Origin: Escherichia coli
GTDB taxonomy: Bacteria > Pseudomonadota > Gammaproteobacteria > Enterobacterales > Enterobacteriaceae
Reading direction: 5' to 3' (one strand)
Length of the DNA: 64,000 nt
Assembly: GCF_050920415.1 (NCBI RefSeq)
Contig: NZ_CP169309.1
The first letter of the stretch is position 1. Each line of letters opens with the position of its first letter. The position numbers and the translations under genes were made by a program. Below are positions 43,690-43,815 of the stretch, one piece after another. Under the pieces are notes generated by a model. The model made no database searches. It had not been told where the DNA came from and saw nothing but the letters and a program-made list of their open reading frames with translations.

Positions 43690-43815
43690 ACTCCACTAGT
43701 TTACCGATAGGGCAATATCGGTATCTATTAGTCAGTATCTAACAACGAGGCTAGGTTAATTAGACAATATCTAAATGTCAACATCACTTAGATTTAATCT
43801 AATTCCTTGATGGGG
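43690..43815. promoter_or_regulatory. Lysis-lysogeny switch region (divergent promoters and operators between apl-like and cI-like genes)
   Basis: Palindrome taccgata-N6-tatcggta at 43702..43723 and repeated tatct(a) motifs in the divergent intergenic region. Confidence 0.55.

Follow-up and report, generated by a model that had tools for sequence, protein, structure and literature searches.

We report that the region between positions 43683 and 43818 of the analysed DNA (a stretch of 64,000 nucleotides from Escherichia coli, called the window here) serves as the immunity switch for a P2-like prophage inserted beside mntS/opgE, and that it contains an inverted repeat whose pairing is conserved among related switches and whose arm sequences are free to change. 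In the reading that we favour, to which we give a probability of about 60%, the CI repressor binds palindromes of the TTAGA type, a Cox-like protein binds phased boxes, and selection maintains the inverted repeat for its structure, most probably that of an RNA stem-loop. The switch is of a known kind, and in our reading the conserved stem-loop around its first Cox box is previously undescribed; a limited search of the literature on 186-like and P2-like switches found no mention of a conserved hairpin at this position.

The intergenic gap between the two start codons is non-coding and measures 136 bp, one less than the 137 bp given in the first-pass annotation. It is flanked by divergent operons, with cI and int on one side, and the excisionase gene, cII, fil and the replication genes on the other. 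The genes next to the gap, and a site associated with cII, are the following:

42927-43430, minus strand: cII open reading frame, whose product is 44% identical to 186 CII
43404..43430, no strand assigned: counterpart of the CII site, ATGTTT-N15-AAACAT, at the start of cII, matching the annotated 186 CII site at pE
43461..43682, minus strand: cox-like gene, an open reading frame for a 73-aa predicted excisionase and lytic-side repressor, heading the early lytic operon
43819..44403, plus strand: cI, coding for the 186-type immunity repressor (194 aa), assigned by Pfam and by 45% identity to 186 CI

The CI protein matches Pfam Phage_CI_repr (helix-turn-helix, E 7e-23) and Phage_CI_C (oligomerisation, E 5e-30), the same domain pair as in 186 CI, to which it is 45% identical over 177 aa. 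Together with the identity of CII and the gene order int-cI / apl-cII-fil, which is that of 186 as well, this bears out the initial assignment of the locus to a 186-type lysis-lysogeny switch. The CII half-sites at the start of cII also match those of 186: the annotated 186 site at pE is GGATGTTTGGAAACCTGAAAATCAAACA, and its counterpart in the window is nearly invariant among relatives. Phage P2 differs in having no CII, and its repressor C, a small unrelated protein, recognises direct repeats, unlike the 186-type CI of the window with its predicted palindromes.

On the lytic side the kinship is with P2. The left-hand gene had been described as apl-like, a name that does not hold, as BLASTP against Apl, the excisionase of 186, found no similarity to the 73-aa protein; a Pfam search of the protein also gave no match. 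It belongs instead to PHROG 575 ('Cox-like excisionase and repressor', E 1.5e-27), and a profile built from 22 relatives has the P2 Cox structure 4LHF as its best sequence match in the PDB (E 0.007). The AlphaFold model, of moderate confidence (pLDDT 64), has a strand-helix-helix-strand-strand-helix topology, and Foldseek placed 4LHF at the top of its structural matches, followed by Pukovnik Xis and other excisionases. Judged from these profile and model comparisons, the product is a distant relative of P2 Cox, i.e. a small winged-helix protein of the Cox/Apl/Xis type made from the first early lytic gene. P2 Cox, likewise a winged-helix product of the first early gene, binds direct repeats at att and close to the lysogenic promoter (PMC7498355, PMC3936717). 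Thus, by sequence and model, the switch pairs a 186-type CI and CII with a P2-Cox-like excisionase.

A prophage 99.7% identical to that of the window is present in E. coli JNE25-001, where the order is portal, ogr, replication endonuclease, dam, cII, cox-like, cI, P-loop NTPase and int, with the host genes mntS, opgE and ompX beyond int. The switch itself occurs at 99% identity or more in 2 of 5426 complete E. coli genomes. The P-loop NTPase gene, of the KAP family, lies between cI and int (44461-46265 in the window). It is intact in the JNE25-001 prophage (594 aa) and split in the window into open reading frames of 80 and 497 aa by a 1-nt deletion in an A run near 44692, which looks like a pseudogene or else a homopolymer sequencing error. 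The gene is absent from EC42405 and from phage ESSI2_ev015, where cI abuts int, so that its position looks like a variable cargo slot, possibly with a role in defence.

Two promoters that face each other across the gap are predicted:

43664..43692, plus strand: pL, predicted lysogenic promoter, TTGTAA (43664-69), 17 nt and CAAACT (43687-92), start near 43698, reading towards cI
43753..43781, minus strand: pR, predicted lytic promoter, TTGACA (43781-43776), 17 nt and TAACCT (43758-43753), start near 43746, reading towards the cox-like gene

The putative pL aligns base-for-base by position with the annotated pL of 186 (TTGCGA-17-CATGAT) and occupies the equivalent position next to the first lytic gene: the -35 element TTGTAA (TTGCGA in 186) lies 10 nt before the start-codon complement, and the -10 element CAAACT (CATGAT in 186) lies 4 nt after it. 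For pR, 69 distinct loci give the minus-strand consensus TTGA(C/T)A-17-TA(A)N(C)T, whose spacer is taken up by a palindrome. A generic consensus scan for promoters and terminators over 43400-44100 called neither pL nor pR, nor any terminator; its one promoter match is an unrelated one inside cI, and it was thus of no help with promoters as weak as these. The face-to-face arrangement as in 186, which had been put forward at the outset, is what sequence conservation predicts, with starts about 48 bp apart. Face-to-face promoters are also found in P2 (Pe-Pc), and in P2-like phages the starts are 40-60 bp apart, with the Cox/Apl operators placed between them (PMC7498355); the predicted distance falls within this range. 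In 186 the starts are 62 bp apart. On the minus strand, the motif CTCC (GGAG on the plus strand; ~43741-43748) is conserved at the same offset in the 69 related loci, just downstream of the predicted pR -10 element, where it spans roughly +1 to +6 of the lytic transcript.

Around pR lie three palindromes which are probably the CI operators, as their co-variation with CI suggests:

43728..43742, no strand assigned: O1, TTAGTCAGTATCTAA, probable CI operator with 1 mismatch to TTAGA-N5-TCTAA, at about +5 to +19 of pR and overlapping Cox box 3
43760..43774, no strand assigned: O2, TTAGACAATATCTAA, probable CI operator, perfect, between the -35 and -10 elements of pR
43788..43802, no strand assigned: O3, TTAGATTTAATCTAA, probable CI operator, perfect, just upstream of the pR -35 element

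The pattern TTAGA-N5-TCTAA, with at most one mismatch, has four matches in the 64 kb, three of them in this gap. The tatct(a) repeats that the first-pass annotation had noticed are the right-hand half-sites of these palindromes. TATCTA occurs at 43722-27, 43736-41 and 43768-73, and ATCTAA/TTAGAT at 43788-93 and 43797-802. Among 69 distinct loci, a palindrome lies ~82-84 nt from the anchor of the search described below, usually with a second one 28-29 bp further, and its half-site changes together with the type of helix-turn-helix in CI:

CI motif ...SSRYKRGGLPADIM: half-site TTAGA
CI motif ...SSRYKRGVFPADIV: half-site TTCGC / TCTCG
CI motif ...SARFKRG(I/V)FPADMV: half-site TTCGA
CI motif ...SARRTRG...: half-site CTCGA
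CI motif ...SGRYRRGGFPADMA: half-site TTTTC
CI motif ...SARYKRGGLPADIML: half-site (G/T)TAGA

By this co-variation the inverted repeats over the predicted lytic promoter change with the repressor, and palindromic repressor sites over the lytic promoter are also the arrangement in 186. The annotated FL and FR sites of 186, TTCAC-N5-GTGAA, have the same 5-N5-5 geometry as the palindromes of the window. The spacing differs: the pR operators of 186 are two helical turns apart (PMC3675496), whereas the palindrome centres in the window (43735, 43767 and 43795) are 32 and 28 bp apart, and spacings of 28-29 bp recur in related loci. A pair of sites spaced by 32 bp is bound by 186 CI at pB, where the DNA is distorted (PMC3675496).

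A search for distal CI sites found a single site with one mismatch on one side of the switch, and none on the opposite side:

44065..44079, no strand assigned: possible distal CI site, TTAGACATACTCAAA, 1 mismatch, inside cI and 305 bp from O2, on weak evidence

In 186, FL lies 306 bp from the middle pR operator. The resemblance is doubtful, as are FL/FR-like sites in the window generally: the +305 site counts as no more than a possible operator, since it is kept in relatives with other operator types and absent from other loci of the TTAGA type. Some related viral contigs (L009, L014, L058 and L087) carry just one palindrome of the TTAGA type at the lytic promoter, and further palindromes of their own type at -329, in the cox-cII gap, and at +298, inside cI; these closely resemble FR and FL of 186. 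Two small repeats also lie on the cox side of the window. One is a perfect 12-bp inverted repeat, GCGTTAAGCGAA...TTCGCTTAACGC, over the last codons of the cox-like gene (43465-43496), and the other, TAATCC-N7-GGATTA, follows it in the cox-cII gap (43445-43463). Both are nearly invariant across all immunity types and show no compensatory changes; the 12-bp repeat, considered as an FR or CI site, was rejected on this account. The pair might serve as a terminator, as a processing site or as part of the CII-dependent promoter.

Between the predicted starts, and at the far end of int, lie two arrays of short direct repeats:

43713..43739, no strand assigned: three direct repeats 10 bp apart, CAATATC (43713-19), ATCTATT (43723-29, weak) and CAGTATC (43733-39), a probable operator array for the Cox-like protein
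47354..47379, no strand assigned: three phased boxes, AATACT / AATACT / GATATT, at 10-bp intervals immediately past the int stop codon; probable excisionase sites of an attachment-site arm

Over 73 distinct loci, the similarity of each locus to its own box 1 (the 7-mer at the centre of the inverted repeat) reaches 4.18 of 7 at +10 and 4.55 of 7 at +20, against ~1.7 elsewhere. The second array is the sole triple-phased RRTAYY array in the 64 kb, and none arose in 200 shuffles; a stricter search of the window for phased boxes of the GCAAT type found none. Phage ESSI2_ev015 shows the same correspondence with other letters, having AACATTC boxes in its switch and, where int ends, AACATCC, AACATTC and AATATTC at 10-bp intervals. 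Direct repeats one turn apart are thus found both in the switch and beside the predicted att side. Apl, Cox and Xis bind direct repeats one helical turn (10-11 bp) apart, between promoters and at att (PMC7498355). Excisionase direct repeats at both places are a feature of 186, as predicted for the window, with seven Apl sites against three Cox boxes here. The P2 cox-box is approximately TTAAAGNCA, from which the box of the window, NAATAYY, differs. A search for attachment-site core repeats with a 14-nt seed found none, and there is no tRNA gene in the 64-kb window. Just past the array behind int there are two copies of the direct repeat GTAACTTATTG, at 47387-47397 and 47406-47416, 19 bp apart, which are probably integrase arm-type sites; phage ESSI2_ev015 (L003, ~4088-4118) has a similar pair, GTAACTTTCTG / GTAAGTTATTG.

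The element that is not accounted for by these two proteins surrounds the first Cox box:

43702-43723, no strand assigned: inverted repeat TACCGATA-N6-TATCGGTA, with perfect 8-nt arms at 43702-43709 and 43716-43723 and the centre GGGCAA at 43710-43715

It is present exactly as first described, and it is the single match to its own sequence in the window even when 3 mismatches are allowed (0.09 expected). Taken alone, a perfect 8+8 repeat in 136 bp is mildly improbable, with ~0.02 expected for spacers of 3-10 nt by our estimate, i.e. about 50-fold. This modest figure, and the folding energies of the whole leader, which are ordinary for its composition (z = -0.5 and -1.9), would be compatible with a functionless repeat, arising by chance or as a by-product of the Cox box and its flanks inherited by descent. 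Since the single repeat is no more improbable than this, covariation across loci is the decisive evidence.

Relatives were collected by BLAST, which gave E. coli prophages of 80-84% identity, phage ESSI2_ev015, a Salmonella phage contig and a Yersinia phage, and by a scan of viral contigs anchored on the conserved stretch over the cox start codon, CGCATAAKGCAAACTYC. The anchored scan yielded 120 loci with 95 distinct intergenic sequences, ~89 of them genuine switches; they come from one anchored search and are related, so that the counts are not of independent events. Loci were kept at a repeat score of at least 4, which nearly all genuine switch loci passed. An inverted repeat is present at the same place in nearly all of these ~90 related switches, with a 6-nt centre C-N-N-C-A-A and a spacer of 6 nt in almost all of them. 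Its arms fall into lineage-specific types (CGATA, CTGTA, GGATA, GGACA, GAATG, GAGCG, GAACT, GAGTG, CCACA, TGATA, GAATA and others).

In an ungapped alignment of 55 distinct versions of the repeat, all 8 pairs have changed on both sides with pairing kept. Paired cells amount to 83.6%, compared with 60.2% in shuffles, and cells with paired changes on both sides number 138, compared with 48; for neither quantity did any of 500 shuffles reach the observed value. Sliding the partner by 1-3 columns lowers pairing to 30-44%. For the inner five pairs, 271 of 275 cells are Watson-Crick. Folding survives in the few exceptions, among them L042 with a bulge of one base and L049 with a hairpin displaced by ~8 nt, and also in a variant whose loop has 7 nt. 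The repeat is kept with other arms in two further relatives, as TTGAGTA-CGGTAA-TACTCA in the Yersinia phage and as GTGCCTAA-CTCACTA-TTAGGCAC in a Klebsiella phage whose Cox-like protein is 41% identical. In the Klebsiella relative the box is also different (CACTAT), and the hairpin again encloses box 1. Compensatory change at every pair and retention in these relatives speak against a repeat without function, to which we give almost no credence.

Across loci, the base after CATAA by the cox start (G or T; 43683-43694 in the window) goes with the repeat centre (43710-43715; CGGCAA/CGCCAA); because the changes are not complementary, this link is probably one of shared descent and not of pairing.

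The arms follow neither of the proteins encoded next door. Seven loci of the LH13-b type encode a Cox-like protein 100% identical to that of the window, yet their arms are CTGTA and those of the window CGATA, and two more groups with identical Cox-like proteins differ in the same manner (GGATA versus GGACA; GAGCG versus GAACT). At least five unrelated CI N-terminal domains are found beside CTGTA arms; conversely, CI proteins of the TTAGA type occur with CGATA, CTGTA, GAACT, GAGCT and AGATA arms. Four CI N-terminal domains that are near-identical through the helix-turn-helix (window, L124, L120 and L054) stand beside the arms CGATA, CTGTA, GAACT and AGCT. As the arms track neither the Cox-like protein nor CI, a sequence-reading protein encoded next door is excluded; and because they vary freely provided that they remain complementary, the repeat appears to be selected as a structure. 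Nor does it seem to be needed for excisionase binding, since the att arrays have no inverted repeat.

The initial proposal was that the repeat is a palindromic CI operator, and it could be thought of as a second class of site, 186 CI having two kinds of recognition sequence. It is indeed a perfect palindrome within the switch, and wherever two loci share an identical CI N-terminal domain, their arms agree as well. Protection by 186 CI also reaches the pL side via poorly defined sites (PMC3675496). Against this, the arms do not follow CI type and are unlike the half-sites of the same phage, the geometry of 5-8 bp arms around a 6-nt centre is not 5-N5-5, and bulged and shifted variants exist. 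In addition, the repeat lies between the predicted starts and not over the lytic promoter, so that it shows neither the co-variation with a DNA-binding protein nor the overlap with a repressed promoter that the TTAGA palindromes show. From these comparisons the repeat is probably not a CI binding site, and we regard the operator proposal as very unlikely.

A further possibility is that the repeat acts as DNA, either as the operator of another dimeric protein, from phage or host, that competes with Cox box 1, or as a DNA structure such as a cruciform. The strictly Watson-Crick inner stem, with no G-U excess on either strand among the 55 variants (in which non-Watson-Crick pairs are few), agrees with it, as do the spacer fixed at 6 in almost all loci and the constant overlap with box 1 of the phased array. 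Because of this strict pairing, the covariation by itself would fit a palindrome at the DNA level equally well. A protein reading the arms would, however, have to exist in ten co-varying forms for the ten or more arm sequences, and the adjacent cox-like and cI genes do not co-vary; nor could a host protein keep pace with a dozen arm types. In the bulged and shifted variants, and in the one with a 7-nt centre, palindromic symmetry is lost while a hairpin still forms, and arms of 5-8 bp are short for cruciform extrusion. Action as DNA therefore strikes us as unlikely, and we retain the RNA stem-loop as the simplest account of why pairing is maintained.

Folded as RNA, the repeat of the window has an energy of about -9 to -10 kcal/mol on either strand. 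The means over the 55 variants are -7.2 (plus) and -8.4 (minus) kcal/mol, with the minus-strand form slightly more stable in 45 of the 55. A search of Rfam at a permissive threshold gave no family matching the hairpin. When a second copy was looked for elsewhere in the prophage, as for paired nut sites, the sole candidate was at 36084-36103; it lies inside a 591-aa open reading frame, is probably there by chance and was rejected. The pL-pR interval of 186 has long-range pairing alone, an inverted repeat TGCAATTGAT-N26-ATCAATTGCG (L006 1566-1612) with ~10-bp arms and a ~26-nt spacer enclosing several Apl sites. It was not accepted as an equivalent hairpin: folding of the interval is ordinary (z = -0.15 and -1.4), with no significant signal, and the repeat may be due to chance.

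We propose that the switch would work as follows. CI dimers on O1-O3 would shut pR and so relieve the interference that pR exerts on the opposing weak pL, as in 186, and pL would then make cI and int. The Cox-like protein would bind boxes 1-3 head-to-tail between the start sites, repress pL from just downstream of its start and perhaps spread to repress pR, and it would use the same kind of array beside int for excision. As O1 overlaps box 3, CI and the Cox-like protein probably compete there; in relatives, too, a CI-type half-site abuts box 3.

The inverted repeat would be carried by transcripts from both sides. On the pL transcript, 4-5 nt would separate the hairpin from the predicted 5' end, and the CII-dependent (pE) transcript would carry it as well. 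Stem-loops so placed guard E. coli mRNAs from 5'-end-dependent decay. The ompA-type stabilising stem-loop has the form predicted here, a short stable hairpin a few nucleotides from the 5' end whose sequence is free and whose pairing is conserved. In the Klebsiella relative one plausible pL would, in our reading, put the hairpin ~27 nt from the 5' end and not at it. On the pR transcript, the complementary hairpin would stand ~8 nt upstream of GGAG, the ribosome-binding site of cox. Matching hairpins on overlapping convergent transcripts, as are predicted here, are known from sense/antisense RNA pairs and could speed sense-antisense pairing. The element in the window differs from both kinds of hairpin in that its loop holds a predicted DNA-binding box. 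The pairing data do not tell which transcript matters, because the inner stem is Watson-Crick without G-U bias; and with no wobble bias, ordinary folding of the leader and no matching RNA family, they do not choose among the RNA roles.

A bolder version takes up the box in the loop. The stem-loop might be an RNA operator in which the Cox-like protein, or another factor, reads the box in double-stranded DNA and again in the loop of the leader hairpin on its own mRNA; we consider this a long shot. If true, it would imply that the protein regulates its own translation, or that the early transcript bears a nut/boxB-like mark, and it would explain why the hairpin is always around box 1, even in the Klebsiella phage, where box and arms have changed.

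The switch itself is ordinary biology for P2-like prophages, and the stem-loop is the one feature that a specialist might not expect. The ~10 types of CI helix-turn-helix, each paired with its own 5-N5-5 half-site, amount to a read-out of repressor specificity, and such pairs could guide the design of orthogonal repressor-operator systems and the prediction of immunity groups from sequence. Furthermore, the spacing of about three helical turns between the probable operators of this 186-type repressor is relevant to the way in which the 14-mer CI wheel contacts DNA. Finally, a conserved stem-loop of free sequence lies within the short overlap of two predicted convergent transcripts. If it controls the stability or the pairing of the cI and cox transcripts, it would add an RNA layer to a model system of transcriptional interference.
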